Shown: positions 9,846 through 42,083, counted from the stretch's first letter. The stretch is 64,000 bases of DNA from an uncultured Acidobacteriota bacterium (GCA_964442185.1 CAYTWT010000293.1:17902-81901), one strand, 5' to 3'. Program-made: numbers and translations. Notes: generated by a model from the sequence alone, not told the origin.

Positions 9846-9884
9846 GCTGCGCGCCTCGGGGCAGGCGTTGTGAGGAGACACGCC

Positions 9885-13975: not shown

Positions 13976-14047
13976 CGGAAACTCCTCGGAAGCCCCCTTC
14001 CAATTTTCATTCTAGTCTCAAACGCCCCCGCCATAGAATGCGGGGTC

Positions 14048-17456: not shown

Positions 17457-17605
17457 GCGTTCGACAGGGCACGCTCCGCGCTGTGATGAAACAGCGCAGG
17501 AATTGCGATCGGCCCCAAGGGCCGCGCGAAGGCCTTGCCGCCCTGGCCTCGCAAGCGGATTGCGTGCCGGCATCTTGATTGCATCAAACTCGAAAGGGGT
17601 TCCCC

Positions 17606-19945: not shown

Positions 19946-20707
19946 CTAGAAGGTGTAGGTTCGGCCCTGCACCATGACGTGCAGGTTACGGATCTTCAGC
20001 GCTTTCAGCTCGCGCTTGATCACAGCCAGGTGCTTGGGCTTGCAGCCGTAAATGTAGACCGGCACGTCCCGCTTGAGCTTCTTTAGTTCGAGCTCCAGCA
20101 TCCAAGGCGTCAGGTGGCCGGAGACCTTGGCCAGTTCCCTCAGTTCGTTGGGGAAGGAACACTCCGTGATCACGCCCTTCAGGCGCTTGGTGTTGTTGGT
20201 GATCTCCCAGAAGCGATGCGTTGGCCCCGTGTCGCTCGAGAAGGCGAGCGCGCCCTTCTTGTCCTCGAGGATGTAGCCCGCGGTCGGCACGCTATGCGAG
20301 ACGTGGACCGCGCGAATCCTGAGGCCGTTCACGACGAAGGGCTCCTCGGGCTGGACCTCGACGAGCTTCAAGACCGGGGTCATGTCGTTGGGGAGGCAGG
20401 TAAAGTCGGGCCAGGTGTGATTGTTGAAGAGATGATTCCGCATCGACGCGACGACCTCGGGGATCGCGTAGATGCGTAGCGCGAAACCAGGTGCCGTGAA
20501 GTTGTTGTCGATCAGAAACGGGAGGGTGCAGGTGTGATCCAGGTGCGAGTGCGAGATGAGGATGTCCTTGACGCGCTCCTGCTCACGCAGTGACAGCGCG
20601 TTCGAGACCCAGCCGGCGTCGAGAGCAAGCGTGTCGTTCACGAGGAACGACGTCATGCCGTGGCCCGGGATGTTGCCCCCGTAGCACCCAAGAGCTCTGA
20701 GCTTCAT
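19946..20707 (-). CDS. Class II 3',5'-cyclic-nucleotide phosphodiesterase (metallo-beta-lactamase fold)
   Basis: HxHLDH signature ISHSHLDHTC; ~58% GC versus ~70% flank. Confidence 0.7.
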   Translation of the reverse strand: MKLRALGCYGGNIPGHGMTSFLVNDTLALDAGWVSNALSLREQERVKDILISHSHLDHTCTLPFLIDNNFTAPGFALRIYAIPEVVASMRNHLFNNHTWPDFTCLPNDMTPVLKLVEVQPEEPFVVNGLRIRAVHVSHSVPTAGYILEDKKGALAFSSDTGPTHRFWEITNNTKRLKGVITECSFPNELRELAKVSGHLTPWMLELELKKLKRDVPVYIYGCKPKHLAVIKRELKALKIRNLHVMVQGRTYTF

Positions 20708-26520: not shown

Positions 26521-27366
26521 TCATGAGTGGGACTTTCCTGTCAAGGAGAGCACCCTGGCGTAGACCTCGCGGGCAGGCAAGCCCAGGGCCCGGGCCACTT
26601 CCTTGACGGCTTCCCGACGGGTCTTTCCGCCTTCGACGAGGCGGGAGAACAGGGCCTCGGCAGATTCCTGGGGACCGGACGCTTTGGACGCTCCCGCCAA
26701 CACCAGGACGATCTCGCCTTTGACCGTTTGGCGGCTCGAAAGGCCCGCGCGGAGCGTCGAAAGCCGCCCGCGCAGGTGTTCCTCGTGCAGCTTTGTCAAC
26801 TCGCGGCCCAGGAACGCCTCGCGATCGCCGAAGGCCGCCTGCAGATCGGCCAGAGTCGCGAGAATACGCACCGGAGATTCGTAGAACACCAGCGTCTCAC
26901 GAGCGCTCGTGAACTCCGCGATCGCCTTCTGGCGCGCGCTGGCCTTGGCCGGGAGGAAGCCCACGAAGAGAAAGCGGTCCGTGGGGAGGCCCGCGACCGA
27001 AAGCGCGGCCACGGCCGCGCTGGCGCCTGGCACAGGTAGCACGCACAGGCCGGCGGCCCGCGCTTCCCGCACGAGCCGGAAGCCGGGGTCGGAGATGCCG
27101 GGCGTGCCGGCGTCCGAAACCAAGGCCACGTCATGGCCCAGGCGCAGCTCCGCCAGGATCTGCTCGCCCTTCCAGCGCTCGTTGTGCTCGAAGTAGGAGG
27201 TGGTCCTCGTCAAGATCCCATGCGCTCTCAACAGCTTGGCCGTCCGCCGAGTGTCTTCGCAGGCGATCAGGCTGGCATCGCGCAGCACCCGCAAGGCGCG
27301 CAGCGTCACGTCCTCGAGGTTGCCAAGGGGCGTCGCGACGACGTACAACCGGCCAGAAACCTCCAT
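26521..27366 (-). CDS. rsmI: 16S rRNA (cytidine1402-2'-O)-methyltransferase RsmI
   Basis: Start at internal ATG (MEVSGRLYVVATPLGNLEDVT); tetrapyrrole-methylase fold motifs. Confidence 0.85.
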   Translation of the reverse strand: MEVSGRLYVVATPLGNLEDVTLRALRVLRDASLIACEDTRRTAKLLRAHGILTRTTSYFEHNERWKGEQILAELRLGHDVALVSDAGTPGISDPGFRLVREARAAGLCVLPVPGASAAVAALSVAGLPTDRFLFVGFLPAKASARQKAIAEFTSARETLVFYESPVRILATLADLQAAFGDREAFLGRELTKLHEEHLRGRLSTLRAGLSSRQTVKGEIVLVLAGASKASGPQESAEALFSRLVEGGKTRREAVKEVARALGLPAREVYARVLSLTGKSHS

Positions 27367-27396
27367 GCCCGCCCGATCATAAGCCGAGGAGCTGGT

Positions 27397-27425
27397 TTGA
27401 CACCCCTCCGGGCCTCGTCTAGCAT
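27397..27425 (+). promoter_or_regulatory. Candidate sigma-70 promoter for rpsU: TTGACA-N17-TAGCAT
   Basis: Consensus -35 and good -10, 78 bp upstream of rpsU start, in rsmI/rpsU divergent region. Confidence 0.4.
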
Positions 27426-27502
27426 CACGAAAGCCTTGGGAGCGTTGCGGCCAGCGGCTCCCGGAGAGGCCCAATCCACGAGAGTCAGGGGGTGTATCCG
27501 TT

Positions 27503-27700
27503 TTGGCCGAGATCAAGATCCAAGATGGCGAGTCGATCGAGAATGCCCTCCGCCGCTTCAAGCGCAAAGTTCAGCAAGAAGACATCATCAAGGACATCAA
27601 GAAGCACACCTTCTACCTGAAGCCCGGCGACAAGAAACGGGCCAAGCAGGCCCTCGCCCGCAAGCGAAACCGCAAGAAACTTCGTCGCGAAGTCGAGTAA
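27503..27700 (+). CDS. rpsU: 30S ribosomal protein S21 (TTG start)
   Basis: MAEIKIQDGESIENALRRFKRKVQQEDI...KRAKQALARKRNRKK. Confidence 0.85.
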   Translation: MAEIKIQDGESIENALRRFKRKVQQEDIIKDIKKHTFYLKPGDKKRAKQALARKRNRKKLRREVE

Positions 27701-27777
27701 GCAGCCAAGAACCACCCCCCGGGGCGCTTTGGCAAGCCCCGGGGCGTTTACGCCCTTGTTCCCCGGAGGGCCCGAGC

Positions 27778-28083
27778 TTGGAATACCGCGACAAAACGCT
27801 CACCTGCGTCGATTGCGAGAAGCCATTCGTGTGGATCGCGAGCGAGCAGCTCTTCTACGCCGACCGTGGCTTCAAGAACGAGCCGAAGCGGTGCCGCGAG
27901 TGCAAGTCGAAGAAGTTTGCGGGAGCGGGCGGCCGCGCGCGAATCTCGACCGCCGCCGTGTGTTCGCAATGTGGAAAGCAGACGACCGTGCCCTTCGAGC
28001 CCAAGCACGGGCGCCCGGTGTTCTGCGAGGACTGCTTCAAGCAGCGCCGTCAGAGCCTCGGTCCCGTGCGTCGCGCGCGATAG
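27778..28083 (+). CDS. Small zinc-ribbon protein (two CxxC pairs)
   Basis: TCVDCEKPF...CRECKSKK...CSQCGKQ...CEDCF; TTG start inferred; 3' end overlaps convergent pta by ~47 bp. Confidence 0.5.
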
Positions 28084-29101
28084 CGCCTAAGGGCCGACGC
28101 TGCAGACTTCTTGCCTGCACGGCAGTGACGGCGATCGCGTCGACGATGTCGTCGATGGAACAGCCGCGCGACAGGTCGTTCGCCGGCTTCGCGAGGCCCT
28201 GGAGAATCGGGCCGATAGCCTTCGCTCCTGCGAGCCGCTCGACCAGCTTGTAGCCGATGTTGCCAGAGTCGAGGTCCGGGAAGACGAGGACGTTGGCTTG
28301 GCCCGCGACCGCGCTACCCGGGGCCTTGCTCTCGCCGACGGCGGGTACGAGCGCCGCGTCGAGTTGAAGCTCGCCGTCGCACACGAGAAGGCTCGATCGC
28401 TCGCGCGCCATCCGAGCCGCCTCGCGGACCTTGCGCGAACGCGCGTGCTCTGCGCTACCGTGCGTCGAGAACGACAAGAACGCGAGGCGCGGCGTCTGCC
28501 GCAGGAACAGGCGGGCACTTTCGGCCGCGAGCAAACCGATCTCGGCGAGCTCCGACGCCGTCGGCTCGGGGTTGACACCGCAATCGGCGAACACCAGCAG
28601 GCCTTCGTCCCCGAACTCAGCCCTTGGCGTCGCCATCAGCATGAAGGACGAGACCCGTTCCACTCCGGCGCGCGGGCCGATGCCACGCAACGCCGCACGC
28701 AGAGTCGCGGCTGTCGTGCTCCGCGCGCCCGCTACGAAGCCGTCGTATCGACCCGCCGCCACCTGGAGCGCACCCCACAGCAGGGGGTCAGAGAGGTGAC
28801 GGCGTGCCTCCTCGCCGACGACACCGCGGTGCCGCACGCGGGCCTCGTAGACGCCCAGGGCCGCTTCGAAGGCCGGTCCGGCCGAGGGAACCGCCTCCTG
28901 GGTGATGCCGGCGAGATCGACCGAAGCCTCGCGCGCCACTGCGTCCAACGCCGCTGGGTCGCCGAGCAGGGTGACGCGGGCAATGCCCTCAGCAGTCGCC
29001 TTGGCGGCGGCCCGCAGTGTGCGGGGCTCACTGCCCTCAGGCAATACGATCGAGGCGGAGACCTCGCGGGCGCGGGCGCGGAGCCGATCCACGAAACCCA
29101 T
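28037..29101 (-). CDS. pta: Phosphate acetyltransferase
   Basis: Start at [14 protein letters not shown]; Pta/PTA_PTB motifs ...[31 protein letters not shown]. Upstream ~490 codons of the track ORF are artefact. Confidence 0.85.
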
Positions 29102-29206
29102 CGCCGCGGACGCTAACACAAGTTGGGGACGCTTTCGTTGACACGCGGCGAGCCGCTGTGATAGCGTTTCCGCCTCGTAACTACCTGAAGCTGTGGGGGA
29201 ACGCCA

Positions 29207-29542
29207 ATGAAAATCGTCGAGCGCCAGGTCGAGGATGTGGTGATCTTGGATCTTCATGGGAAGATCCTGATCGGCGAAGGAGACGACGCGCTCCGCGACG
29301 CCGTCACCCGGGTCGTCGACAGCGGAAAGACGAAGATCCTCCTGAATCTGGAGGATGTGCCCTACGTGGATTCGGCCGGCCTGGGCGAGATCGTGCGGTG
29401 TTACACCACAGTCAGCCGCAAGAACGGCAAGCTCAAGCTGATCAACCTCACGAAGAAGATCAAGGACCTGCTGTCGATCACCAAGCTGCTCACGGTCTTT
29501 GAAACCTACGAGTCGGAATCCGAGGCGATCAAGAGCTTCTAG
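29207..29542 (+). CDS. STAS-domain anti-sigma-factor antagonist (SpoIIAA/RsbV-like), orphan
   Basis: Classic STAS layout with conserved phosphorylatable Ser region DSAGLGEI; ~57% GC. Confidence 0.8.
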
Positions 29543-29611
29543 CAAGGGCACTTCGGCCCGTCCGGGCGGCCCTGGTTCGCGCCACGCGGCCTTAGGGAGC
29601 CGCTCCTTTCC

Positions 29612-30508
29612 ATGAAACCGCTTCTCGTCTCCCTCCGGCCGCACCAGTGGACGAAGAACCTCCTGGTCTTCGCTCCGCTGGCGCTGTCCAAGCATCTTTT
29701 CGAGCCGGAGCCGTTCCTGCGCGCGCTCGTCGCCTTTACCCTGTTCTGCGGGCTCTCGGGCGCTGTGTACCTCGTCAACGATGTCGTCGACGTCGAGCGC
29801 GACCGGCTGCATCCGAGAAAGCGGCTGCGGCCCGTGGCGAGCGGTGTGCTCTCCGCGCGGACGGCTTGCACCTTCGCGGGCCTGATTGGGCTTTCGTGCC
29901 TCGGCGCTTCGTTTGCGCTGGGTCCGGCCTTCGGCCTCTCGGCCCTGGCCTATCTGCTGCTGAACCTCGCCTACTCGTTGAAACTCAAGGAGATCGTGAT
30001 CGTGGACGCACTCGCGCTCGCACTCGGTTTCGTGGTGCGAGCGGTCGCGGGCGCCGTGGCGATCGGCGTCGTCTTCAGCGCTTGGCTGCTGATCTGCACC
30101 ATCCTGCTGGCCCTGTTCCTGACCTTTTGCAAGCGACGGCACGAGCTGACCTTGCTCACCGATGCGGCCTCCGAGCATCGCAAGAGCCTCGGGGAGTACA
30201 GCCCGTATCTGCTCGACCAGATGATCGCCGTCGTAACCGCGTCGTGCCTGATGGCGTACGCCTCGTACACGACCGCACCGGAGACGATCGAGAAGTTCCA
30301 GACCGACCGCCTGCCCTGGACCATTCCTTTCGTGCTCTACGGCATCTTCCGTTATCTTTATCTCGTGCACCGGCGGGAGCTGGGCGGCAGCCCGACGGAC
30401 ATCCTCCTGACCGATCTGCCGCTCATCCTCGACGTGGTCCTGTGGGCCCTTGCGATCGTGGTGATCGTGTACACGGCCCAGGGCGCGCCGATGCCGCTGG
30501 GGCGCTGA
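29612..30508 (+). CDS. UbiA-family polyprenyl-phosphate phosphoribosyltransferase (DPPR-synthase / Rv3806c / NoeC-like)
   Basis: N-terminus [15 protein letters not shown] and first Asp-rich motif [23 protein letters not shown] resemble decaprenyl-phosphate phosphoribosyltransferases rather than UbiA/MenA; 8-9 TM. Confidence 0.7.
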
Positions 30509-30509
30509 C

Positions 30510-31058
30510 ATGAGCTTCGAGATCCAGTCGAAAGACGTCGACGTCGAGGCCATCATGCGCGCGATCCGCAAGCGCATTGACGAAAAAAGGCAAGGCCTCT
30601 ACAGCGACGAAGAGATCCGGGAGATCGCCGAGCATCGGCTGGATGCCGTGCTCGACGCGCACGACTTCAATCCCGACTTCATCAAGGACTTCCGTGCGCA
30701 GGCGGCTCGCTGGAACTTCCGCTTCGGGCAAGGCACCGTATACGAGTCGAGCCGCGGGGCGGTGGGCCGGGTCCTGGAGACGATCCGGCGGCTCCTGAAG
30801 CCGATCCAGAAGCTGTTCTGGAACCCGAACCCGATGATTGCGGCGCTCTCCCGCCAGTCGGATCTGAACTCGTACTACGTCCACCTGCTCCACAACCTGG
30901 CAGTCGAGATCACCAAGCTGAACCTCGAGGTGCAGGATCTGCGCAACCGCTGCTTGGAGCTGCAGGGCCGCCTCGAGTTCCAGGTGCGACGCGAGAAGAC
31001 GCTCGAGGGGATGGTCGTCTACCGGGACGACGCGCCGGACGGGCGCCGCACCGAGTAG
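30510..31058 (+). CDS. Conserved hypothetical protein, C-terminal coiled coil, no TM
   Basis: Tight coupling (1-bp gap upstream, 0-bp downstream) inside glycan operon; no recognisable catalytic motif. Confidence 0.5.
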
Positions 31059-32246
31059 GTGAGGCTCGCGTTCGTGGTCCAGCGCTATGGCCTGGAGATC
31101 GCTGGCGGGGCCGAGTACCACTGTCGGCTCATCGCCGAGCACCTCTCGCGGCATGCGAAGGTCGAGGTGTTCACGACCTGCGCCGCCGACTACGTGACGT
31201 GGGCCAACCACTATCCCGAAGGCACCGAGGTCCTGAACGGACTGCCCGTGCACCGCTTCCGGGTCCAGCGCGAGCGCGATACCGTTCGCTTCGCGCGCGC
31301 GAGCCGTGAAGTATTCGAGAGCCCCCGGGGCGAACGCGAGGAGCTCGCGTGGCTCGAAGAGGAGGGGCCGTTCTCGCCCCGGCTCGTGAAGCAGGTGGAA
31401 CGGCGCCGCGCCGACTTCGACAGCTGGGTGTTCTTCTCGTACCGCTACTACACGACCTTCCACGGCCTCAGGGCCGCCCGCGATCGCGCGCTGCTCGTGC
31501 CGACGGCTGAGGACGACGGGGTTTACAAGCTGTCCATCTTTCGGCCACTGTTCCGGATGCCGCGTGCCATTGTCTGGAACAGCGTCGAGGAGAAGACGAT
31601 GATCGAGGCGGTTGCGGCGAACAGCGATGTGCCCGGGGACGTAGTAGGTGTCGGCTCCGCGCTCCCTGCGAGTCTCGATGGCCACGCGTTCCGTTCCGCC
31701 CACGGCGTCGATGGGCCGTTCGTGCTCTATGTCGGCCGGATCGACGAGAACAAGGGCTGCCGCGAGTTGTTCGGGTTCTTTCGGCGCTACCGCGAGGAAA
31801 CCGGCTCGCGCCTGCGCCTGATCCTCATCGGCAAGCCCATCTTGTCGATCCCCGACGATCCCGGCATCGTGCCGCTCGGTTTCCTGCCCGACGCCGAGAA
31901 GTGGAACGCCCTTGCCGCGTGCGAGGCGTTGGTCATGCCCTCGCGCTACGAGAGCCTGTCGATGGTGACGCTCGAGGCGTGGTGGGCCGGCCGGCCGGTG
32001 CTCGCGAACGCGAAGTGCAGCGTGCTGCGAGGCCAGTGCCAACGGTCGAACGCGGGTCTATACTACGCCGGCTACGACGAGTTTCGCGAAGCGCTCGCCG
32101 TGCTCGAGTCCGAGGCGGGCTTGCGCCAGACGCTGGGAGCGAATGGCCGGCGCTATTTCGAACAGAACTATGCCTGGGACGTGATCGAGCGGAAGTATTT
32201 GGCGCTCTTTGCCCAGGCCGGTCGAAGCGCGGGCCAAGGAGCGTAG
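31059..32246 (+). CDS. GT4-family glycosyltransferase (type A paralogue)
   Basis: GT-B fold; N-terminal VVQRYGLEIAGGAEYH and C-terminal E-x7-E region; GTG start abutting previous stop. Confidence 0.8.
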   Translation: MRLAFVVQRYGLEIAGGAEYHCRLIAEHLSRHAKVEVFTTCAADYVTWANHYPEGTEVLNGLPVHRFRVQRERDTVRFARASREVFESPRGEREELAWLEEEGPFSPRLVKQVERRRADFDSWVFFSYRYYTTFHGLRAARDRALLVPTAEDDGVYKLSIFRPLFRMPRAIVWNSVEEKTMIEAVAANSDVPGDVVGVGSALPASLDGHAFRSAHGVDGPFVLYVGRIDENKGCRELFGFFRRYREETGSRLRLILIGKPILSIPDDPGIVPLGFLPDAEKWNALAACEALVMPSRYESLSMVTLEAWWAGRPVLANAKCSVLRGQCQRSNAGLYYAGYDEFREALAVLESEAGLRQTLGANGRRYFEQNYAWDVIERKYLALFAQAGRSAGQGA

Positions 32247-32249
32247 CGT

Positions 32250-33323
32250 GTGATCCGGCGCGTCCCGCAGCTGCTGGCCGCGCTGTCCTACGGCGATGCG
32301 ATCGGCAACGAGGCCCTCGCCATTCAGCGTCACTTGCGTGCGGCCGGTTACGAATCTGACATCTTCGCCGAGCGCGTGCACCCGCGGATGGCGCGCCTGG
32401 CGCGGCCGCTTCACGAGTACCGCGAGGTCTCGTCGCCGGAAACCGTCTGTCTGTTCCATTTCTCGATCGGCAGTGCGGCAGGGCGGATGGCCTTCCACGC
32501 CCCCGATCGGCTCGTCGCCATCTACCACAACATCACGCCCGCCGAGTTCTTCCTGGGCTTCCAGCCGCACCTCGCGGGTCTGTGCTATCACGGGCGGCGG
32601 GAGCTCGCGGCATTTGCTCCGCGCACCGCGCTGGGCCTGGGCGACAGCGAGTTCAACCGGCGCGAGTTGCAGGCTGCCGGGTACCGCCGGACTGAGGTGT
32701 TGCCGATTGTTCTCGATCTCGAACGCTATCGTCAGCCCGCCTCGCCGGTCGTGCGCGGCCTCTACAGCGACGGCCGGAAGAATCTGCTATTCGTCGGCCG
32801 AATCATCCCCAACAAAAAGATCGAGGACCTGCTCCGCGTCTTTGCGATCTATCAACGCTATCTCGAGCCTCGCAGTCGCCTGCTGCTGGTCGGCGAGTCT
32901 CGTGGCTTCGAGCGCTACCAGCGCCGCTTGCGCGAAAGGGCGGCGGCGCTCCGGCTCGACAACGTGGTCTTCGCCGGCCACGTCGACGACGACGACCTGC
33001 GAGCCTACTATTCCGTGGCCGACGTCTTCTTGTGCCTGTCGGAACACGAGGGCTTCTGCGTGCCGCTCGTCGAGGCCATGAACTTCGGCGTGCCTGTCGT
33101 GGCGTTCGACGCAGGGGCCGTGGCTGAGACACTGCGCGGCGGCGGTGTGCTCCTGAAAGAGAAGCAACCGGAGGTCGTGGCGGAGCTGGTCCACCGGGTC
33201 CTGACCGACGCAGCGTTGCGCTCCGCCGTGATGGGCACGCAAGAACGAGCGCTGGCCGAGGTCCGGGCGACCGATTTCGGCGCCCTCCTGCGCGAGCGCC
33301 TCGCGCCGGCCCTGGTCTCATGA
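32250..33323 (+). CDS. GT4-family glycosyltransferase (type B paralogue 1)
   Basis: GT4 C-terminal motif CLSEHEGFCVPLVEAM; GTG start 3 bp after previous stop. Confidence 0.8.
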   Translation: MIRRVPQLLAALSYGDAIGNEALAIQRHLRAAGYESDIFAERVHPRMARLARPLHEYREVSSPETVCLFHFSIGSAAGRMAFHAPDRLVAIYHNITPAEFFLGFQPHLAGLCYHGRRELAAFAPRTALGLGDSEFNRRELQAAGYRRTEVLPIVLDLERYRQPASPVVRGLYSDGRKNLLFVGRIIPNKKIEDLLRVFAIYQRYLEPRSRLLLVGESRGFERYQRRLRERAAALRLDNVVFAGHVDDDDLRAYYSVADVFLCLSEHEGFCVPLVEAMNFGVPVVAFDAGAVAETLRGGGVLLKEKQPEVVAELVHRVLTDAALRSAVMGTQERALAEVRATDFGALLRERLAPALVS

Positions 33324-34402
33324 GCGCCTCTCGCCGGGCGGTCCATCAGCTCCTGGGGGCGCTCCACGCCGGCGACGCCGTGGGGCACGAAGCCCTCGTG
33401 ATCCGCGACACGCTGCGTGGCGCCGGGCATGTTTCAGAGATCTTCGCGGGCTTCATCGACCCGGAGCTCACGGCCGAGGCGCGGCCCCTTTCCGGCTACG
33501 CGGCGGTCTCGGGACCCGAAAGCGTCTGCCTGTTTCACTTCGCGCCGGAGAGCCCCGCCGCGCGGCTCGCGCTGGCCGTGCCCGATCGACTGGCGCTCGT
33601 GTTCCACAACATGACCCCGGCGGCGTTCCTGGCGCGCTTCGATGCCGGCCTGGCGCGCGCTCACATCCTGGGTCTGGGGCAGCTGCGCGCGTTCGCCTCG
33701 CGCGCGCGCCTGGCGCTGGCTCACAGCGATTTCAGTCGTCGTGACCTCGTGAGGGCGGGCTTCGCGGAGCGTGCGCGGGTGGTGCCCTTCGCCGTGGACC
33801 TTCGCGAGAAGCGACCGGCGGCTGCGCCCGTACTCCGCACGCTGTTCGCCGACGGGCACAGGAACCTGCTGTTCGTGGGCCGCATCGCTCCGAACAAGCG
33901 GATCGAGGACCTGTTGCGTGTGTTTGCCGCCTACCGGCGCCTGGCAGGCAAGCGCAGCCGCCTGCTGCTCGTCGGCGACACCACTGGCTTCCCCCGGTAC
34001 GTGCAGAGCCTGCACGCGCTGACCCGAGAGCTGCGCCTCGACGACGTCGTGTTCAGCGGTCACGCGAACGAAGCCGAGCTTCAGGCGTACTACTCCGTGG
34101 CAGCAGCCTTCGTGTGCCTCTCCGAGCATGAAGGCTTCGGCGTGCCCTTGCTCGAAGCCATGCTCTGGGACGTGCCGGTGCTGGCCTTCGACGCGGCGGC
34201 GGTGGCCGAGACGATGCGGGGTGGCGGTGTGCTGCTCCGGGACAAGCGTCCGGCGCTTGTCGCCGAGCTTCTGAACGAGATCCTGAGTCGGCCGGCTCTG
34301 CGCGAAGCCGTGCTCACGACGCAGCGGCGCGCGCTGGCGCAGTGGCGGGCGATCGACTTTGGCGCGCGGCTGCTCGCAGAGCTTCGACCACTGGTGGCGT
34401 GA
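33320..34402 (+). CDS. GT4-family glycosyltransferase (type B paralogue 2)
   Basis: CLSEHEGFGVPLLEAM; ATGA overlap with upstream gene. Confidence 0.8.
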   Translation: MSASRRAVHQLLGALHAGDAVGHEALVIRDTLRGAGHVSEIFAGFIDPELTAEARPLSGYAAVSGPESVCLFHFAPESPAARLALAVPDRLALVFHNMTPAAFLARFDAGLARAHILGLGQLRAFASRARLALAHSDFSRRDLVRAGFAERARVVPFAVDLREKRPAAAPVLRTLFADGHRNLLFVGRIAPNKRIEDLLRVFAAYRRLAGKRSRLLLVGDTTGFPRYVQSLHALTRELRLDDVVFSGHANEAELQAYYSVAAAFVCLSEHEGFGVPLLEAMLWDVPVLAFDAAAVAETMRGGGVLLRDKRPALVAELLNEILSRPALREAVLTTQRRALAQWRAIDFGARLLAELRPLVA

Positions 34403-35502
34403 TGGCGCGCCCCAGCCGCGTCGATCAGTGGGTCCCCGCCCTCCACCGCGGCGACGCGATCGGAGACTCGACGCTGCTGATGCGCGACGCGTTCCGCTCC
34501 TGGGGCCTAGCGGCCGAGGTGTACACGCTCGACGTCGACGACGAAGTTGCCTCCCAGGCCAGGCGCTTCTCGGCCTGGAAGGCGGGCGGCCCGGACGATG
34601 TGGTGATCCTCCACTATGCTCTGCCCTCGCGCCTGAGCGGGGCGTTCCGCGAGTTGCGCTGCCGGCGCGTGCTGCTGCACCACAACATCACGCCGCCAGC
34701 GTTCTATGCGCCGTACGACCCGGAGCTGGCAGGGATCTGTGCGCTGGGGCAAGCGGAAGTCCGCAGCCTCACTGCTCACGCAGAACTGGCGCTGGGCGAC
34801 AGCGAGTGGACCCGTCAGGAGCTCGAACGGATGGGCTTCGCGCGCACCGGCGTGCTGCCGATCCTGCTCGATTTTGAGCGCTACGCGGAAGCCCCCGGGG
34901 CCGTTCTGTCGCGGGCGCTGGGCGACGAACGGGTCAATCTTCTGTTTGTCGGCCGTGTCGCTCCGAACAAGCGCCACGAAGACTTGATCCGCGTCGCATC
35001 CTATTGGAAGCGCTTCATCGCATCGGACGTGCGCCTGCTGCTCGTGGGCAAGCGGCCGCGCCGCGAGACTGGCAATGGCCTGCCGCTGCGCAAGCACTAT
35101 CTCGACGCGCTCCAGTCGTTCCACTACGAGGAAGGCCTGGACGCGACGGAAGTGGTCTTCACGGGCCACGTACCCCACGACGACCTGCTCGCCTGCTACT
35201 CGCGCTCCCGCGTGTTCCTTTCGATGAGCGAACACGAGGGCTTCGGCGTGCCGCTCGTCGAGGCGATGCTGATGAACGTGCCAGTGCTGGCATTTCGCGC
35301 AAGCGCCGTGGGCGACACGCTCGGCGACGCGGGTTTGCAGTTTGGCGAGAAGTGCTTTGCCGAGGTCGCGGAGCTCTGCCATCAGCTTGCGACAGACGAG
35401 TCGTTGCGCGCGAGCGTTCTCGCGGGGCAGCGCCGCCGCCTGGAGGCGTTCGCGCCCGCCGCCGTTGAGGCGACGCTGCGGCGCCACCTGGAGTCGCTGT
35501 GA
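34402..35502 (+). CDS. GT4-family glycosyltransferase (type B paralogue 3)
   Basis: Start ATG overlapping previous TGA (TGATG); SMSEHEGFGVPLVEAM. Confidence 0.8.
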   Translation: MARPSRVDQWVPALHRGDAIGDSTLLMRDAFRSWGLAAEVYTLDVDDEVASQARRFSAWKAGGPDDVVILHYALPSRLSGAFRELRCRRVLLHHNITPPAFYAPYDPELAGICALGQAEVRSLTAHAELALGDSEWTRQELERMGFARTGVLPILLDFERYAEAPGAVLSRALGDERVNLLFVGRVAPNKRHEDLIRVASYWKRFIASDVRLLLVGKRPRRETGNGLPLRKHYLDALQSFHYEEGLDATEVVFTGHVPHDDLLACYSRSRVFLSMSEHEGFGVPLVEAMLMNVPVLAFRASAVGDTLGDAGLQFGEKCFAEVAELCHQLATDESLRASVLAGQRRRLEAFAPAAVEATLRRHLESL

Positions 35503-36701
35503 GCCGCAAGCCGCGGGTCGCGATCGTCATCCAGCGCTACGGAGCGGAGATCGCAGGGGGCTCCGAGTCCCTGGCTCGGGCGGTCGCCGAACGCCTGACG
35601 AGCGATCACGAGGTGACCGTGCTGACGACGTGCGCGCGCGACTACGTGAGCTGGAAGAACGAGCTGCCGGAGGGAGCACAGGGCGAGAACGGCGTCGAGG
35701 TCCTGCGTTTTCCCGTCGAGCAAGAGCGCGATCTGGCGTCGTTCAACCGCATCTCCGAGAGGCTATACGCCGGCGCACGCACTGAGACCGAGGAACTCGA
35801 CTGGCTCCGAAAACAGGGACCCGACGTGCCACGACTCGTCCAGCGCCTCGAAGCGGATCGTGATCGTTACGATGCTGTGTTCTTCTTCACGTACTTGTAC
35901 TTCCCGACGTACTGGGGCTTGCGGGCGGCGGCGGAGCGCTCGATTCTGGTTCCCACCGCTCACGACGAGCCACCGCTGGGGTTTTCGATCTATCGTCGCG
36001 TCTTCGAGGCTCCGCGGGCCTTCGTGTTCTGCTCTTCCCCGGAACGGGAGCTGGTCCGCCGGCGTTTCGAGATTGGCGCGCGACCCGAGGAGGTGGCGGG
36101 GATCGGCGTCGAGGTTCCCGCGGCTGCCGATGTCGAGGGCTTCCGTATCCGCCACGAGGTCCGCGGCCCTTACGCGCTTTACGCCGGCCGCATCGATGCT
36201 GGCAAGGGTTGCGATGAGATGCTCGAATTCTTCGGCCGTTACCGTGCGAGCGTCCGTGGGGGCGTGCAGCTGCTCTTGATCGGGCGACTCGCCATGCCCG
36301 AGCCCCGCGTTCCGGGCGTGCGCTACCTCGGCTACTTGGGCGAGGCGGAGAAGTTCGCGGCGCTGGCTGGGGCGAGCGCCGTCGTCTGCCCCAGCTCCCT
36401 CGAAAGCCTGTCGATCGTCCTGCTCGAGGCAATGGCCTACGGCACTCCGGTTCTTGCAACCGCGCGCTCGGCCGTGCTCGAGGACCATTGCCAGCGCTCG
36501 AACGCGGGGTTGTTCTATCGGGACGCGCCCGAGTTCGTGGAGGCGCTCGACCTCCTGGCCACGCAGCGCGACCTGGCGCGGGCGCTCGGCGAGAACGGGC
36601 GACGCTACGTGACCGAAGGCTATCGTTGGGACGTGGTGATGGAAAAGTACCGCCGGGCGATCGCCGCGGTGCGCACGGCTCCATACCCGCCGAGCTTCTA
36701 A
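35499..36701 (+). CDS. GT4-family glycosyltransferase (type A paralogue 2)
   Basis: N-terminus VIQRYGAEIAGGSESL paralogous to 31059..32246; GTGA overlap. Confidence 0.8.
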   Translation: MSRKPRVAIVIQRYGAEIAGGSESLARAVAERLTSDHEVTVLTTCARDYVSWKNELPEGAQGENGVEVLRFPVEQERDLASFNRISERLYAGARTETEELDWLRKQGPDVPRLVQRLEADRDRYDAVFFFTYLYFPTYWGLRAAAERSILVPTAHDEPPLGFSIYRRVFEAPRAFVFCSSPERELVRRRFEIGARPEEVAGIGVEVPAAADVEGFRIRHEVRGPYALYAGRIDAGKGCDEMLEFFGRYRASVRGGVQLLLIGRLAMPEPRVPGVRYLGYLGEAEKFAALAGASAVVCPSSLESLSIVLLEAMAYGTPVLATARSAVLEDHCQRSNAGLFYRDAPEFVEALDLLATQRDLARALGENGRRYVTEGYRWDVVMEKYRRAIAAVRTAPYPPSF

Positions 36702-37534
36702 CGCAAGGTCCTCAACAGCTCGAGCAACGCCTCGGTCGTCGGGGCGCCCTTGAGGATCGAGGCCGCCCGTGCAATCTGGTTGACGGCTTCCTCGATCGCT
36801 TCGGCGCCAGCCCCTTTTTCGATCTCGCCCTTTGCCCTGGCGTAGTGCTTGTTCACGACGCTCTCGCCCACGGAGCCGAGCAGATTGTTGCAGGCATCGC
36901 GCACTGTGAGCAGCTTCGCGAGCAGTTCGCCGCTCGCGGGGCCCCCGGCGGCCAGCCTGCCCGCGGCCCCCGGCTTTGCGGCGGTCCCGGCGAGAACGGT
37001 TTCCCGCAGCCGGATCAGCCCGGTGGCGATCAGGCCGTAGAGGATCTTGGCGGCGTCGAACACGGAAAGGCCGCTCGCCAGCGCGATCTGCTTGATCGAG
37101 CGCGTGGCATCGATCTTCGACAGGACCAACCACTCGCTCGTGTTCAGGTTGATCTGGCCCTCTCGCGTTTCCTGCACTACGAACTCCGGCACCAGTTCGG
37201 TCGAAGGGATCTTCTTGGAGAGCACCCGCCACTCGTCGAGCCGCCGCGCCGCCTCCATGAGCAGGTTGGTGTTGCTCTTGGAGATGGTGCGTAGCTCCGT
37301 CGAGATGCCGGGCTCGAACTTGAAGTCACCCCGGCTCCAGATCGCGAGCGCATAGACCGCTTCCTCACCCGTGGCGTCTTCGAGCTGGGCATGGACGATC
37401 TTCCCGTCGTTCAGGTAGATCTGGCCCTTGAGCGCGCCGTCGGTGAGGTGGAACAGGCCCGTTTTCCCACTGACGCTTATGAGCTGGATGATGTCCGGTA
37501 GATGAAGTTCCGCGAGCGAGCCCTGGAAGGCCAT
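36698..37534 (-). CDS. DUF4388-domain protein
   Basis: N-terminal GSLAELHLPDIIQLISVSGKTGLFHL...GKIVHA DUF4388 signature; last gene of HK-RR operon. Confidence 0.75.
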   Translation of the reverse strand: MAFQGSLAELHLPDIIQLISVSGKTGLFHLTDGALKGQIYLNDGKIVHAQLEDATGEEAVYALAIWSRGDFKFEPGISTELRTISKSNTNLLMEAARRLDEWRVLSKKIPSTELVPEFVVQETREGQINLNTSEWLVLSKIDATRSIKQIALASGLSVFDAAKILYGLIATGLIRLRETVLAGTAAKPGAAGRLAAGGPASGELLAKLLTVRDACNNLLGSVGESVVNKHYARAKGEIEKGAGAEAIEEAVNQIARAASILKGAPTTEALLELLRTLR

Positions 37535-37613: not shown

Positions 37614-39068
37614 TCAGGCCGGCGTTGGCTTGGCCTGGCTCAGTTCCACTTCACGGCTTGCGGGGTGGCCGCTGCGCCTCTCGCGCTCGCGGGGAATCGC
37701 GATGTTGTGACGCTTGATCATCTCGTTCAGAGTCGTGGGCTTCAGGCCCAGGAGCCGGGCGGCTTCCTTCTGCACGCCGCGGGTCGACTCCAGGGTCGAC
37801 TCGATCAGACGCCGCTCGAAGCTCGCGATCACGTCCTTGAAGCTGATGCCCTCGGGCGGCACAGTCAGGTGCGGCACGTGGAAAACCGGGGCGCTACGCA
37901 CGTGGTCGGGGATGATGTCGCGCTCGATTTGCATGTCGGTGGTGAGCACGACGCCACGCTCGATCACGTTTTCGAGCTCGCGCACGTTGCCCGGCCAGTC
38001 GTAGTCCATCAGCACCTGAAGCGCTCCGGGTGCGACACCCGTCACGGTCTTGCCGTTCTCGCCCGCATACTTGTCGACGAAGTGCATGGCGAGGGCCGGG
38101 ATATCCTCTTTGCGCTGGCGCAGTGGCGGGAGCTGGATCGCGATGACGTTCAGGCGGTAGTAGAGATCCTCGCGAAAACGGCCCTCTTCCACAGCGCGGC
38201 GCAGGTCGATGTTGGTCGCGGCCACGATCCGCACGTCGACCTTGACCGTCTCGACGCCACCGAGGCGCATGAACTCACGCTCCTGCATCACGCGTAGCAG
38301 CTTGGCCTGGGTCTCGAGCGGGATGTTGCCGATTTCGTCGAAGAAGAGCGTGCCCTTGTCCGCCAGCTCGAAGAGGCCCTTCTTTGCGTACACCGCGCCG
38401 GTGAAGGCGCCCTTCACGTGGCCGAAGAGGTTGGACTCGAGCAACTCATGGGGAAGGCTTCCGGAGTTGACCACGATGAAGGGCCGTTCAGCACGCGGGC
38501 TGTTGGCGTGGATAGCCTTGGCCACCAACTCCTTGCCGGTGCCGCTTTCGCCGACCACCAGGATCGTCGAGCGCGAGGGAGCCGCCTGCGAGATCAGACC
38601 AAAGACCTGCTGCATCCGCTGGCTCTTCCCGATGATCTCGGTAAAACGCGCCTGGTCGCGCAAAGCGGTGCGCAGTTGGCGGTTCTCGTCCTGCAGATGC
38701 CGCTGCTTGAGCGCGTTCCGCAGGATGTGCAATACCTCTTCGTGCTTGAAGGGCTTCGTGACGTAGTCGAAGGCGCCCTTCTTCATGGCGGTGATCGCGG
38801 TCTCGACGGAGGCATAGGCGGTGATCATCAGCACGACGAGATCGGGATCCACGCGCTTCAGCTCCTCGAGCACCTCGAGGCCGCCAAGCTCCGGCAGCAT
38901 CACGTCCACGATGGCCGCGTCGAAGCCGGCCTTGCGGGCGAGTGAGAGGCCTTCGACCCCAGTCTCGGCCAGCGTCACCCGGTAGCCCGACTGGGTCAGC
39001 AGTGTCGTGAGCACGTCGCGCATCACCTCTTCGTCGTCGACGACGAGGATGGATTCGCCCTTGCTCAC
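37614..39068 (-). CDS. Sigma-54-dependent response regulator (NtrC family: REC + AAA+ + HTH)
   Basis: REC Asp (IVDVMLPE), GESGTGKE Walker A, GAFTGA sigma-54 contact motif, C-terminal Fis-type HTH. Confidence 0.9.
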   Translation of the reverse strand: MSKGESILVVDDEEVMRDVLTTLLTQSGYRVTLAETGVEGLSLARKAGFDAAIVDVMLPELGGLEVLEELKRVDPDLVVLMITAYASVETAITAMKKGAFDYVTKPFKHEEVLHILRNALKQRHLQDENRQLRTALRDQARFTEIIGKSQRMQQVFGLISQAAPSRSTILVVGESGTGKELVAKAIHANSPRAERPFIVVNSGSLPHELLESNLFGHVKGAFTGAVYAKKGLFELADKGTLFFDEIGNIPLETQAKLLRVMQEREFMRLGGVETVKVDVRIVAATNIDLRRAVEEGRFREDLYYRLNVIAIQLPPLRQRKEDIPALAMHFVDKYAGENGKTVTGVAPGALQVLMDYDWPGNVRELENVIERGVVLTTDMQIERDIIPDHVRSAPVFHVPHLTVPPEGISFKDVIASFERRLIESTLESTRGVQKEAARLLGLKPTTLNEMIKRHNIAIPRERERRSGHPASREVELSQAKPTPA

Positions 39069-41893
39069 CGTTGGGCGGCCTCGGCTACGAGGGCAGCCGG
39101 AAGTGCGACCTGGAACGTCGTGCCCGTGCCCGGCGCCGACTCCACGAAGATCGCGCCACCGTGCTCCTGGACGATGCCGTAGGAAACCGAGAGGCCGAGG
39201 CCGGTTCCGCGCCCGATGCCCTTGGTCGTGAAGAACGGGTCGTAGATGCGCTTGACGTCCTCACGCTTGATGCCGTGACCGGTGTCGCGCACCTCCACGA
39301 TCACCGTGTCGTCGTCGTCGGCGCGCGTCGCGATCGTGAGCCAGCCGCCCTTGGGCATGGCATCGCGGGCGTTCAGAATCAGGTTGAAGAACACCTGCTG
39401 AATGCGGTTCTCGTTGCCACGAATCGCAGGCAGGTCCTCGGCCATCTCCCGCACCACGCGGATGCGCGCCTTGTCCAGCTGGTGCTCGAGCAGCGACAAC
39501 ACCTCGAGCAGCGTCTTGTTCACGTCGAGGATTTCGAACTCGGAGCTCGAGGAGCGCGCGAAGTTCAAGAGGTTGTTGATGATCCTGGCCGCGCGGAAAG
39601 TCTGCTTCTCGATCTTATCGAGGAGCGGGAAGCGCAGGTCTTCGGGTTGCACCTGTTCTTTCAGCATCTGGGTGTAGGACGAGATGCCGGTGAGCGGGGT
39701 GTTCACCTCGTGGGCGACACCCGCCGCGAGCAGGCCGATCGAGGCCATCTTCTCCGAGTGCTGCAGCTGTTCTTCGAGGCGCACCCGCCCCGTGACGTCC
39801 TCGAGGATCAGCACCGTTCCGTGGCGCTCGCCCGAGACGACCTCGAAGGGCGCGATCGAGACGTTCACCATCAGGCTCCGGCCGTCGGCTGCCGGTAGGT
39901 GCAGCTTGTAAATGTGCGCGATCTCCTCGTGATCCTCGAGCACCAGGCTCCCGCGCAGCGCTTCGAGAAACGCGGCCGGGAAGATCTCGTCCAGGGTGCG
40001 TCCAAGTACCTCCCCGCGCTTCCGGCCGTAGAGCGATTCCATCGCCTTGTTCCAGCGCGCCACGGCGCCGTCGAGGTCGAGGACCAGGATCCCCGAGTCC
40101 ATGCTTTCGAGGATGTTCTGGTTGTATTCCGTGAGACGCTGCAACTCCTCGGCCTTCTCGCGCAGGCTCTTGTAGAGCCGGCCATTCATGAACGCCGTGG
40201 CGGCCTGACCGGCGAGGGCCTGGAGGACGTCGACCTCCTCACTGTTCAGCGTATCGAAGCCGTCCTTGCGGCCGATACCCAGTACCGCGATCACCTCGCC
40301 CTTCACCCGGCAAGGGAAGTAGTAGACGAAATCGAGCGGCCCGGCTTCGGGGAACGACTCGCCCGTGGCCTCGGCGTTCACGGGCTCGCCATGCGCAAGA
40401 CGCCGCAGCAGCGCGCCCCCGCGCGGCAGCCGTACGGTCTCGTTTTCCGGTGCGCAACCGCGCGACTCGAAAATCGAGAACGAGCCGTCGGCCTCCGGCA
40501 GGAAGGCGGCCACCGACGAGACGCGCAGCGCGGTGCCGACGCCTTCGAGCAGCCGAGCGGTCATCGAGTGCAGATCCAGGTCGGAGTTGAGGTCTTGCGA
40601 GAGGCGCAGCAGGGCCCGGCGTGGGCTCTCCCGCTCGCGGTAGAGCAGCTTGTCGATTACGTCCTGGATGCGGCTCTTGACGGGCGGGAAGAGCAACACC
40701 ACGACCAGCGTCGAGAGAATCGCGATGACGGTGACGTGGGGCTCCTCGTCGCCCGTGACGAACGAACCGAGCAGGCCGACGACCAGCAGGCAGATGCCGA
40801 CGATCGCGGCCGTGGCGAGGACGTAGACGAGCGAGCGTCGGAAGATCAGTTCGACGTCCATCAGCCGGTGTTTCACGACCGCGTAGGCGAGCGACAACGG
40901 GATGAGCGCCAGCGGGATGTAGCCAGCCAGCTCCATCGCAAAGCGCGGCTCACGCCCCAGCGCGAAGGGGATCGCGTAGAACAGGAAGAACGGGAGCACC
41001 CCGGCGCCGGTGCCCCACACCAGCCACTTCATCTGCTTGCGCGCCGTAAGGGAGCGGGTCTTGCGGTAGGAATCAAGCAGGATGCCGAAGGAGACCGCGA
41101 ACAGGAAGCCGAAGTAGAATGGCTTGCTGCGATCGATCGCCGCGGTGATCCGCCACAGCACCTCGCCCCCGGGCGTCGTCACGAACAGCACCTGGCTCGC
41201 GACGGCGGCGCCCGCCAAGGCCAGCGCGGGCATGTACGCGGCGGGCACGAGCCAGGCGCGGGACGAGGGCAGCCGCCTTTCCGGGAACGAGATGCAGAAA
41301 TGCAGGAAAACGACTGGCAGCAACAGGATCGCCAGGTGGTCGGTCCACAGCAGCGTCCAGTCGGCAAGGTTGAGCCGCCCCGTGTAGGACGTTGAGTACA
41401 TCAGGAAGAACAGCAGGCAGATCGCGTAGAAGTGGAGCGCCGCGCGGTCGGGCGGCCGGCGCAGCATCACGATCGTGCCGACGATCAAGCTGAAGAAGCC
41501 GACCAGCGAGAGATAGTAGAAGAGCGTTACGTTGCCCTTGCTGAGCGGCTTCACCGTGACTTCGAGCGAGCGACGCTCGTCGGCGCGCAGCAGCGAGTAC
41601 TGGACGTGGTCCCCGGCGGCGCGCCGCGCCAACCGCGCCTGGACCTGCGTTTGGGCGAGCACCTCGTCGCCATCGAGTGCTAGGAGCACGTCGCCGACCC
41701 GCACTCCGGAGAGGGCAGCGGGTCCACCGGATGCCACGCGAGCGGCGACAACGCCGGCGGCCCCGTTCTTCCAGAACACACCGTCGTCGAGCAGCGTCCA
41801 GGTCGCTTTCAGGAAGATGTTGTAGACCCCGAGGCTGGTGAGCAGCAGTGCCACCGCAAGAACAGCGAAGTTGCGGACCCGGGACCCCTTCAT
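39065..41893 (-). CDS. Sensor histidine kinase: N-terminal TM + periplasmic PDZ + ~8-TM block + GAF + PAS + HisKA + HATPase_c
   Basis: Start at ATG MKGSRVRNFAVLAV; PDZ-like GVRVGDVLLALDGDEV; H-box HEVNTPL; N, G1, G2 boxes; overlaps RR start by 4 bp. Confidence 0.85.
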   Translation of the reverse strand: MKGSRVRNFAVLAVALLLTSLGVYNIFLKATWTLLDDGVFWKNGAAGVVAARVASGGPAALSGVRVGDVLLALDGDEVLAQTQVQARLARRAAGDHVQYSLLRADERRSLEVTVKPLSKGNVTLFYYLSLVGFFSLIVGTIVMLRRPPDRAALHFYAICLLFFLMYSTSYTGRLNLADWTLLWTDHLAILLLPVVFLHFCISFPERRLPSSRAWLVPAAYMPALALAGAAVASQVLFVTTPGGEVLWRITAAIDRSKPFYFGFLFAVSFGILLDSYRKTRSLTARKQMKWLVWGTGAGVLPFFLFYAIPFALGREPRFAMELAGYIPLALIPLSLAYAVVKHRLMDVELIFRRSLVYVLATAAIVGICLLVVGLLGSFVTGDEEPHVTVIAILSTLVVVLLFPPVKSRIQDVIDKLLYRERESPRRALLRLSQDLNSDLDLHSMTARLLEGVGTALRVSSVAAFLPEADGSFSIFESRGCAPENETVRLPRGGALLRRLAHGEPVNAEATGESFPEAGPLDFVYYFPCRVKGEVIAVLGIGRKDGFDTLNSEEVDVLQALAGQAATAFMNGRLYKSLREKAEELQRLTEYNQNILESMDSGILVLDLDGAVARWNKAMESLYGRKRGEVLGRTLDEIFPAAFLEALRGSLVLEDHEEIAHIYKLHLPAADGRSLMVNVSIAPFEVVSGERHGTVLILEDVTGRVRLEEQLQHSEKMASIGLLAAGVAHEVNTPLTGISSYTQMLKEQVQPEDLRFPLLDKIEKQTFRAARIINNLLNFARSSSSEFEILDVNKTLLEVLSLLEHQLDKARIRVVREMAEDLPAIRGNENRIQQVFFNLILNARDAMPKGGWLTIATRADDDDTVIVEVRDTGHGIKREDVKRIYDPFFTTKGIGRGTGLGLSVSYGIVQEHGGAIFVESAPGTGTTFQVALPAALVAEAAQR

Positions 41894-42054
41894 GCGCTTA
41901 GACTGAATCCACCCGGCTGCAATCGGCATGCCGCAATCGAGGCGGACTCGCACGCGTAAGGCGCTGATATCACACAGACTTCCCCCCTCATTCGGGGCTG
42001 CGAATCCGGATTCACGGAATCGAAGTTCATTGCGTTGGAGTGCCAGTCCGATCA

Positions 42055-42083
42055 AGAAAAAAGCGAGGCCCGCGGCGCCTCGC
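42055..42083 (-). terminator. Rho-independent terminator downstream of outer-membrane protein gene (stem GCGAGGC/GCCTCGC, then UUUUUUCUU on - strand)
   Basis: 7-bp GC stem + U-tract read on minus strand, 48 nt after the stop at 42131. Confidence 0.4.

Follow-up and report, generated by a model that had tools for sequence, protein, structure and literature searches.

The window analyzed here is a 64-kb stretch of DNA (67.5% GC) from an uncultured Acidobacteriota bacterium (GCA_964442185.1 CAYTWT010000293.1:17902-81901), whose genome belongs to the Vicinamibacteria. The ORF (open reading frame) listing of the window contains eight co-directional genes on the plus strand at 29207-36701, which encode a STAS-domain protein, a UbiA-superfamily enzyme, a 182-residue protein of an undescribed family (hyp182), and five GT4-type glycosyltransferases (GT_A to GT_E; Table 1). 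The cluster places a known type of lipid-pentose synthase in an undescribed arrangement that is conserved phylum-wide, beside a fixed set of GT4 enzymes and a protein family not described before. An earlier description of the locus from its sequence, referred to below as the original prediction, held that seven of the ORFs are tightly packed, and the coordinates confirm junctions with gaps of 0-3 bp or overlaps of 1-4 bp. UbiA and hyp182 are separated by 1 bp, hyp182 and GT_A by none, and GT_A and GT_B by 3 bp; the remaining genes overlap through ATGA (GT_B/GT_C), GTGATG (GT_C/GT_D), and GTGA (GT_D/GT_E).

Relatives of the UbiA protein transfer ribose-5-phosphate from 5-phosphoribosyl 1-pyrophosphate (PRPP) to polyprenyl phosphate on the cytoplasmic side. 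The window protein scores 282.2 bits against NF008977 (decaprenyl-phosphate phosphoribosyltransferase, cutoff 234) and 213.3 bits against NF008978 (cutoff 207). Scores on the 4-hydroxybenzoate, heme-o, chlorophyll, and DGGGP models are at most 45 bits, with the UbiA/heme-o models at 26-30 bits. Residues 6-282 align with Mycobacterium tuberculosis Rv3806c (PDB 8j8j; E = 3.7e-35, 35% identity). The Rv3806c structure maps the contacts for Mg, pyrophosphate, ribose, and the 5-phosphate, and its phosphoribose contacts are not common to true prenyltransferases (PMC10994848). When mapped through the alignment, 10 of the 12 PRPP/Mg-binding residues are identical (R22, K28, Y70, N73, D77, K87, R90, Y138, K143, and K208 in Rv3806c numbering). 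The other two are conservative changes, Q135 to N and Y157 to F, the latter also being found in some mycobacteria. The protein consists of the UbiA domain alone, with at least eight hydrophobic segments and no fused HAD domain in its 298 residues. Close homologs carry the NCBI name decaprenyl-phosphate phosphoribosyltransferase and the JGI name 4-hydroxybenzoate polyprenyltransferase. By sequence, the enzyme is a member of the Rv3806c-type polyprenyl-phosphate 5-phosphoribosyltransferases (PPPRS). This agrees with the original prediction, which had placed it with the decaprenyl-phosphate enzymes and not with the 4-hydroxybenzoate or MenA prenyltransferases, and the motifs quoted in that description are present in the translation.

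GT4 enzymes are soluble or peripheral proteins that use nucleotide sugars. All five glycosyltransferases of the cluster exceed the Pfam cutoffs of Glycos_transf_1 or Glyco_trans_1_4 and each has an EX7E motif, which bears out their earlier classification as GT4-type. They fall into two paralogue groups. GT_A and GT_E are 47% identical, and the second group comprises GT_B and GT_C (56% identical) and GT_D, which is 42% identical to both. GT_C is a lineage-specific extra copy of GT_B that is missing from most related loci, where four GT4s are found. NCBIfam and PDB searches returned generic donor-domain similarity only and no donor or acceptor assignment. The NCBIfam matches, to glucosaminyl-phosphatidylglycerol (GlcN-PG) synthase, monoglucosyl-diacylglycerol synthase, and IagA/BgsA, are weak and far below cutoff; the PDB matches include PimA, PimB, and WbaZ. 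GT_B, GT_C, and GT_D also pass the cutoff of the Pfam 'GT4-conflict' family. A role in defense was nevertheless rejected, because the three proteins score far higher on general GT4 models and the locus is conserved and housekeeping-like.

Table 1. Features of the cluster and of its convergent neighbors, with positions in the window
Feature	Position	Strand	Basis
Promoter-like element, sigma-70 type	29138-29167	+	Motif kept upstream of STAS in related loci
Anti-sigma-factor antagonist-type STAS-domain protein, 111 aa, heads the cluster	29207-29542	+	Pfam, TIGR00377
Polyprenyl-phosphate 5-phosphoribosyltransferase (PPPRS/DPPRS type, UbiA superfamily; assigned by sequence), 298 aa	29612-30508	+	NF008977, PDB 8j8j
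hyp182, soluble helical/coiled-coil protein, undescribed family, 182 aa	30510-31058	+	Conservation, AlphaFold models
GT_A, GT4-type glycosyltransferase, 395 aa	31059-32246	+	Glycos_transf_1 56.1 bits, EX7E at E298
GT_B, GT4-type glycosyltransferase, 357 aa	32250-33323	+	Glycos_transf_1 107 bits, EX7E at E267
GT_C, GT4-type glycosyltransferase, 360 aa	33320-34402	+	Glycos_transf_1 78.2 bits, EX7E at E271
GT_D, GT4-type, start GTG 34399 or ATG 34402	34399-35502	+	Glyco_trans_1_4 71.3 bits, EX7E at E280
GT_E, GT4-type, 400 aa, last gene of the cluster	35499-36701	+	Glycos_transf_1 61.6 bits, Glyco_transf_4 31.9 bits, EX7E at E302
DUF4388/PatA_N protein, convergent neighbor	36698-37534	-	Pfam
NtrC-type sigma-54 activator, convergent neighbor	37614-39068	-	Pfam
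PDZ-GAF-PAS histidine kinase, convergent neighbor	39065-42055	-	Pfam

Conservation of the gene order

Related loci were collected with the hyp182 protein itself and come mostly from related Acidobacteriota. We compared 39 genome loci with 80 metagenome loci of a more distant clade (hyp182 about 40% identical), about 120 in all. Metagenome-assembled genomes (MAGs) labelled Acidobacteriota/Acidobacteria or Vicinamibacteria account for 38 of the 39 genome loci, and the most distant one (L041) is labelled 'uncultured bacterium'. Protein identity to the nearest related locus is about 90%.

The genome loci share the order STAS-UbiA-hyp-GT_B-GT_D-GT_E, with GT_A usually present and GT_C found in the closest relatives only. 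A convergent DUF4388-NtrC-histidine kinase set then follows in most genome loci that reach that far. The metagenome loci begin with purD on the opposite strand, often followed by a small treble-clef zinc-finger gene, and continue with STAS, UbiA, sometimes a DUF362 gene, and hyp; their 3' part consists of GT_A, GT_B, GT_D, and GT_E, and then convergent NtrC and kinase genes. Of 82 loci that could be assessed, 76 have UbiA immediately 5' of hyp, and a GT4 gene directly follows hyp in 73 of 74. Four is the usual number of GT4 genes, and the A-B-D-E order holds in distant loci at 42-57% identity. Overall, conservation of the cluster across the clade is comparable with that of PurD. The original prediction had set conservation of the gene order as a test beforehand. 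The order proves strongly conserved, and neither of the contrary outcomes named in advance was found, namely a UbiA protein of the 4-hydroxybenzoate/menaquinone type or an unconserved order within an ordinary lipopolysaccharide (LPS) or exopolysaccharide (EPS) locus. An additional gene, encoding a DUF362 protein, lies between UbiA and hyp in L042 (8762-9889), L086, and L124.

The same genes also occur in a second setting. Locus L128 has the order atpI-atpB-atpE-metalloenzyme-UbiA-hyp followed by four GT4 genes and a convergent deoC; its hyp protein is 30% identical to that of the window, and its UbiA protein passes the NF008977 cutoff. The presence of UbiA, hyp, and four GT4s in two unrelated neighborhoods argues for a functional unit and is stronger evidence than the locus counts. 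In L041, L045/L046, L059, and L061, on the other hand, no UbiA gene adjoins hyp and the four GT4s, which remain intact. L045/L046, from a MAG labelled candidate division B38, have the same atp and deoC context as L128 without the metalloenzyme-UbiA pair, and in L059 and L061 hyp directly follows STAS. Two other UbiA-less cases tell less: only UbiA fragments are left in L080, and a 1.3-kb contig (L131) shows STAS followed by hyp without UbiA, although it stops short of the GT4 region. The GT4 line is therefore not strictly dependent on an adjacent UbiA gene.

The hyp182 family

No Pfam, NCBIfam, or PDB match was found for hyp182, including with a PDB profile search. The family is large, with more than 1100 close homologs at 74-91% identity, and a profile search recovers 780 clusters when sequences are grouped at 50% identity. 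AlphaFold models built from 24 and 71 sequences are all-helical and poor overall (pLDDT 55 and 64); they are confident only in a long helix at residues 107-168, where a heptad pattern is present. The protein has no transmembrane (TM) segment and no obvious catalytic motif, and Foldseek matched the model to no PDB structure (best E = 6.3). The protein, described in the original prediction as a conserved hypothetical with coiled-coil character, belongs to a large undescribed helical/coiled-coil family. We suggest that hyp182 may act as a non-catalytic scaffold or adaptor.

Many hyp182 relatives are 250-500 residues long and combine a common N-terminal domain of about 180 residues with a disordered Pro/Ala/Arg-rich tail. 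In the other Acidobacteriota proteins P0132, P0140, P0157, P0186, and P0203, a disordered Pro/Ala-rich tail of 100-300 residues contains runs such as RRRRRRGRR, and the window protein has no such tail. A methyltransferase or kinase domain considered for the 300-500-residue relatives was rejected, as these contain only disordered tails and no Pfam domain. Identity with PspA/IM30 was likewise rejected, hyp182 and ten relatives being without any Pfam match. Two family members bear the JGI names 'phage shock protein A' and 'DNA repair exonuclease SbcCD ATPase subunit' (P0250 and P0404); since no Pfam family matches, these names are probably coiled-coil artefacts.

In every sampled context, genes of the hyp182 family adjoin glycan genes. 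One paralogue (L130, 4978-8588) directly follows MBOAT and AlgX-type genes for polysaccharide O-acetylation, with a PatA_N/DUF4388-TPR protein nearby and no GT4s. Its position beside O-acetylation genes indicates that the family is glycan-associated and has a broader link to glycan modification.

Relation to known systems and proposed function

The decaprenyl-phospho-arabinose pathway of Rv3806c resembles the cluster in its UbiA enzyme, which aligns over the full length (35%), shares the PRPP, Mg, and 5-phosphate residues, and has the same predicted chemistry with PRPP and polyprenyl phosphate. That pathway, however, includes an Rv3807c-type phosphatase, DprE1/DprE2, an SMR flippase, and Emb/Aft glycosyltransferases of the GT-C type, none of which is found in the window or in related loci. 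The partners here are instead soluble GT4s and a helical protein, and the host is a Gram-negative-type acidobacterium. Synthases of the same family occur in a Gram-negative glycan context in the three-component pentofuranose systems (Citrobacter youngae ORF15/ORF14/ORF12; PMC11127046) and in the pilin arabinosylation locus of Pseudomonas aeruginosa PA7. In characterized relatives the synthase product is dephosphorylated, sometimes epimerized, flipped, and then used as a GT-C donor (Kelly et al. 2024, PMC11127046). The three-component systems have a HAD fusion, a MATE/SMR flippase, and a GT-C enzyme (GT136-type), whereas the synthase described here has none of these in its cluster; scans of the window recover the synthase, but no adjoining 5-phosphate phosphatase and no clustered flippase. 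They are also variable serotype determinants, in contrast to the present cluster, which is conserved across the phylum. The loss of the synthase in individual lineages is compatible with an accessory decoration of the kind made by these systems.

Serial soluble GT4s that work at the membrane are known from Escherichia coli O9a (WbdA, WbdB, and WbdC), where the coiled-coil protein WbdD serves as organizer, and from the eukaryotic Alg2 and Alg11. A kinase or methyltransferase domain is absent from hyp182, which shares no detectable similarity with WbdD. Nor is there a WecA-type initiator or Wzm/Wzt exporter near the cluster. An ordinary O-antigen or EPS locus was rejected, given that no initiator, Wzx/Wzy, or Wzm/Wzt lies nearby and that the same order and orthologues recur across the phylum. 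A variable locus of this kind also conflicts with the PurD-like conservation and the housekeeping surroundings. Literature searches found no description of the cluster, nor of pentofuranose glycans in Acidobacteria, in keeping with the earlier statement that no described system could be recognized.

Pathway partners were sought by scanning almost every large ORF of the window with Pfam and NCBIfam. The scanned ORFs include no DprE1/E2, PAP2, HAD phosphatase, MATE, GtrA, Wzx/Wzy, or initiating phosphoglycosyltransferase, and no FAD_binding_4/ALO protein or matching short-chain reductase that would correspond to DprE1/DprE2. Neither the window nor the genes called in L042, L045, and L128 yielded a MATE or SMR/GtrA flippase, and no GT-C enzyme is present in the cluster or within 10 kb of it in related loci. 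The absence of DprE1/DprE2 and Wzx/Wzy reported by the original prediction therefore stands. The accompanying claim that no ABC export partner is present holds less well, as the window does contain a transporter-like pair about 20 kb from the cluster: an ABC ATPase (6737-7507, plus strand) whose gene overlaps the start of that for a 533-residue protein with about 11 TM segments (7495-9096). The latter has no Pfam, NCBIfam, or PDB match.

Two further proteins could be related to such partners. A 596-residue protein with about 12 TM segments is encoded 11 kb 3' of GT_E (48024-49814, plus strand). It has 331 homologs, the named ones all being 'hypothetical' proteins of Vicinamibacteria, and no Pfam, NCBIfam, or PDB match; hits to the C-terminal domain of AglB are non-significant (E ~0.3). 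A loop motif, DDLERIDTAFHVAVTWEL..WPPQVPG, is similar to the acidic motifs found in the first loop of GT-C enzymes, and the protein might be a candidate GT-C, albeit one without a significant match. In L128, the gene directly 5' of UbiA (8128-10000) encodes a 'Metalloenzyme' of the alkaline phosphatase superfamily, similar to phosphopentomutase and iPGM, which could be the missing 5-phosphate phosphatase.

We tentatively favor, at a probability of roughly 40%, a housekeeping-like Acidobacteriota operon for a defined, conserved envelope oligosaccharide or glycolipid, in which the pentose lipid most likely serves as an accessory donor. The operon would be transcribed from the conserved sigma-70-type promoter in front of STAS. 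Its conserved core, hyp182 and four soluble retaining-type GT4s (pairs A/E and B/D, with GT_C as a fifth here), would work at the cytoplasmic face of the membrane, where each GT4 would add one sugar from a nucleotide sugar while hyp182 scaffolds the enzymes. That the two paralogue pairs keep a constant order hints at a product of short, defined structure rather than a polymer of variable repeats. The UbiA enzyme would move ribose-5-phosphate from PRPP to polyprenyl phosphate, as does Rv3806c, and its product would supply a lipid-linked pentofuranose to the same glycoconjugate, presumably after flipping and through a GT-C enzyme encoded elsewhere. The loci in which the core is intact without UbiA fit such an accessory role, and a donor function appears consistent with all precedent as well as with the repeated loss of UbiA.

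Several points weigh against this proposal. No phosphatase, flippase, GT-C, or epimerase is recognizable across the 64 kb of the window or in the surrounding 10 kb of related loci, and in known systems the partners of a donor pathway are clustered with the synthase. The loci that lack an adjacent UbiA gene might have one elsewhere in the genome. The locus counts are not independent events, because the loci were found via hyp182 and are related to one another. For hyp182, a scaffold role is suggested only by its lack of catalytic motifs and by helical models of low confidence. Moreover, UbiA is the only enzyme of the cluster that uses polyprenyl phosphate and no initiating phosphoglycosyltransferase is present, which favors the pentose lipid as a primer; the tight coupling of the UbiA and hyp genes, which are 1 bp apart, suits that role as well.

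In such a pathway, the GT4s would extend polyprenyl-phosphate-ribose, or its 5-phosphate, sugar by sugar at the cytoplasmic face, and hyp182 would tether them to the UbiA enzyme. The translational coupling of UbiA, hyp, and the GT4s is in line with this arrangement, as are the recurrence of the order UbiA-hyp-GT4 (four copies) in two unrelated neighborhoods and the lack of any other initiating transferase or donor-pathway partner nearby in about 120 loci. Lipid-linked acceptors are also common substrates of GT4s, and the PDB matches include PimA, PimB, and WbaZ. Set against these observations are the loci L041, L045/L046, L059, and L061, which keep hyp and four GT4s without an adjacent UbiA. 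The comparison of L045 with L128 is especially pertinent, since the two share the atp/deoC context and differ by the metalloenzyme-UbiA pair, which looks like the gain or loss of an accessory module. Literature searches found no GT4 extension of polyprenyl-phosphate-ribose, and we know of no precedent for it. An obligatory primer is accordingly less likely than an accessory donor, and we regard it as possible but doubtful. The pentose-primed pathway put forward by the original prediction is thus not established, as hyp and the four GT4s persist in UbiA-less loci. The same caution extends to its broadest form, a new class of lipid-linked oligosaccharide in Acidobacteriota and at least one B38-labelled MAG, with ribose(-5-phosphate) as the first sugar on polyprenyl monophosphate and four GT4s on a hyp182 scaffold, made as a universal envelope component; we consider this rather unlikely.

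It is less probable still that the GT4s glycosylate a membrane lipid directly (diacylglycerol, a phospholipid, or lipid A) to give a glycolipid or LPS-core-like product, with the UbiA product as a separate periplasmic donor or unrelated. Such a route would do without a polyprenyl primer, a polymerase, or a dedicated flippase, which matches four fixed GT4s without initiator, polymerase, or exporter, and it would accord with the housekeeping-level conservation of the cluster and with the weak, sub-cutoff GT4 matches to glycolipid synthases and to PimA/PimB. Those matches, however, all reflect generic donor-domain similarity, nothing points to an acceptor, and the consistent position of UbiA directly before hyp is left unexplained. 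Finally, UbiA, STAS, and the GT4s could be functionally unrelated genes held together by general Acidobacteriota synteny, given that purD, purE, and rsmI on the 5' side and the NtrC and histidine kinase genes on the 3' side are equally syntenic in the same loci. We consider this very improbable: UbiA, hyp, and four GT4s also lie beside ATP synthase genes in a lineage without the acidobacterial flanks, the gene junctions in the window's cluster are gaps of 0-3 bp or overlaps of 1-4 bp, and hyp-family genes stand next to glycan genes in all contexts sampled.

Acidobacteriota rank among the most abundant bacteria in soil, and little is known of the chemistry of their envelope. Conservation like that of a purine gene across the phylum suggests that the product of the cluster is probably a basic envelope component and not a strain-specific antigen. 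A PRPP-dependent lipid-pentose synthase, an enzyme type described so far for the arabinan of mycobacteria and for systems that decorate side chains, appears here in a new genetic setting. Were its product to act as a primer, the cluster would make a new kind of bacterial lipid-linked oligosaccharide; were it to act as the accessory donor that we favor, the locus would still define a large uncharacterized family tied to glycan assembly. In the latter case it would also be a specific target through which an envelope glycan of Acidobacteriota could be dissected genetically for the first time.

STAS, transcription signals, and genomic surroundings

The STAS protein exceeds the cutoffs of Pfam STAS (59.9 bits, cutoff 22.6) and TIGR00377 (70.1 bits, cutoff 53.45). 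Its motif VDSAGLG (DSAG) contains Ser56 at the phosphorylatable serine position of DSxG, and by these signatures it is a typical member of the anti-sigma-antagonist family (SpoIIAA/RsbV type). No partner-switching kinase of the RsbW/SpoIIAB type and no PP2C phosphatase was found among the scanned ORFs of the window. The gene has 57.1% GC, and a GC3 (GC content at third codon positions) of 0.86 indicates that this low value reflects amino-acid content and not foreign origin. Sequence identity ranges from 80 to 99% inside the class and from 59 to 68% in the wider clade, a conservation stronger than that of PurD, and of 60 loci that could be assessed, 57 have STAS 5' of hyp. It is therefore no oddity, as the term 'orphan' in the original prediction implied, but the conserved first gene of the cluster.

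The lower GC content of STAS and the TTGACA upstream of it had been noted in that description, and both are confirmed. TTGACA (29138-29143) is followed after an 18-nt spacer by TAGCGT (29162-29167), which is preceded by TG (29159-29160). TTGAC and GTG.TAGC.T are kept in at least 80% of 36 sequences, which comprise the window and 35 Vicinamibacteria loci compared over the 130 nt 5' of STAS, and they lie at the same position in L003-L040. The element resembles an extended -10 promoter of the sigma-70 type. A generic promoter and terminator scan gave nothing useful and missed it. The spacer between STAS and UbiA varies from 3 to 201 bp across loci and contains no conserved promoter; that of the window folds no better than shuffled sequences (z = -0.22). 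In about 10 loci (L021, L022, L025, L028-L031, L033, L035, and L036), a GC-rich inverted repeat (GGCGGGCGGRCC ... GGYCCGCCCGC) directly follows the STAS stop codon. The hairpin may be an attenuator or a transcript-stabilizing element between STAS and UbiA.

The original prediction also suggested regulation by the neighboring sigma-54 module, which the data do not support. The window contains 22 matches to the -24/-12 consensus, where 21 are expected by chance, and none precedes STAS or UbiA, so that sigma-54 control was rejected in favor of the conserved sigma-70-type promoter. The histidine kinase/NtrC pair is a conserved but convergent neighbor with no demonstrated operon link. Its adjacency is weak evidence, because purD and purE are equally conserved neighbors.

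On the 5' side, a phosphate acetyltransferase gene (28037-29101, minus strand) is divergent from STAS. A longer antisense ORF (28037-30577) was rejected as a single gene; it is a high-GC artefact of which only the 3' part is real. In related loci, a treble-clef zinc-finger gene (zf_Tbcl) usually lies just before STAS. The corresponding ORF of the window spans 27133-28083 (plus strand) and overlaps rsmI, for which reason the real gene is probably confined to about 27781-28083. The phosphate acetyltransferase gene lies, on the opposite strand, between zf_Tbcl and STAS both in the window and in L001 and L002, the closest relatives, where this was checked.

No Rfam family and no tRNA was found in the whole window. 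The rest of it contains housekeeping genes: tryptophan/aromatic biosynthesis, rho, udk, ftsEX, purD/purE, rsmI, pta, eno, glgC, methylmalonyl-CoA mutase, and gatB. Interspersed among those 5' of the cluster are genes for a Fic-domain protein (13673-14761), a GGDEF diguanylate cyclase (17579-18367), and a metallo-beta-lactamase protein similar to class-II phosphodiesterases (19946-20707).

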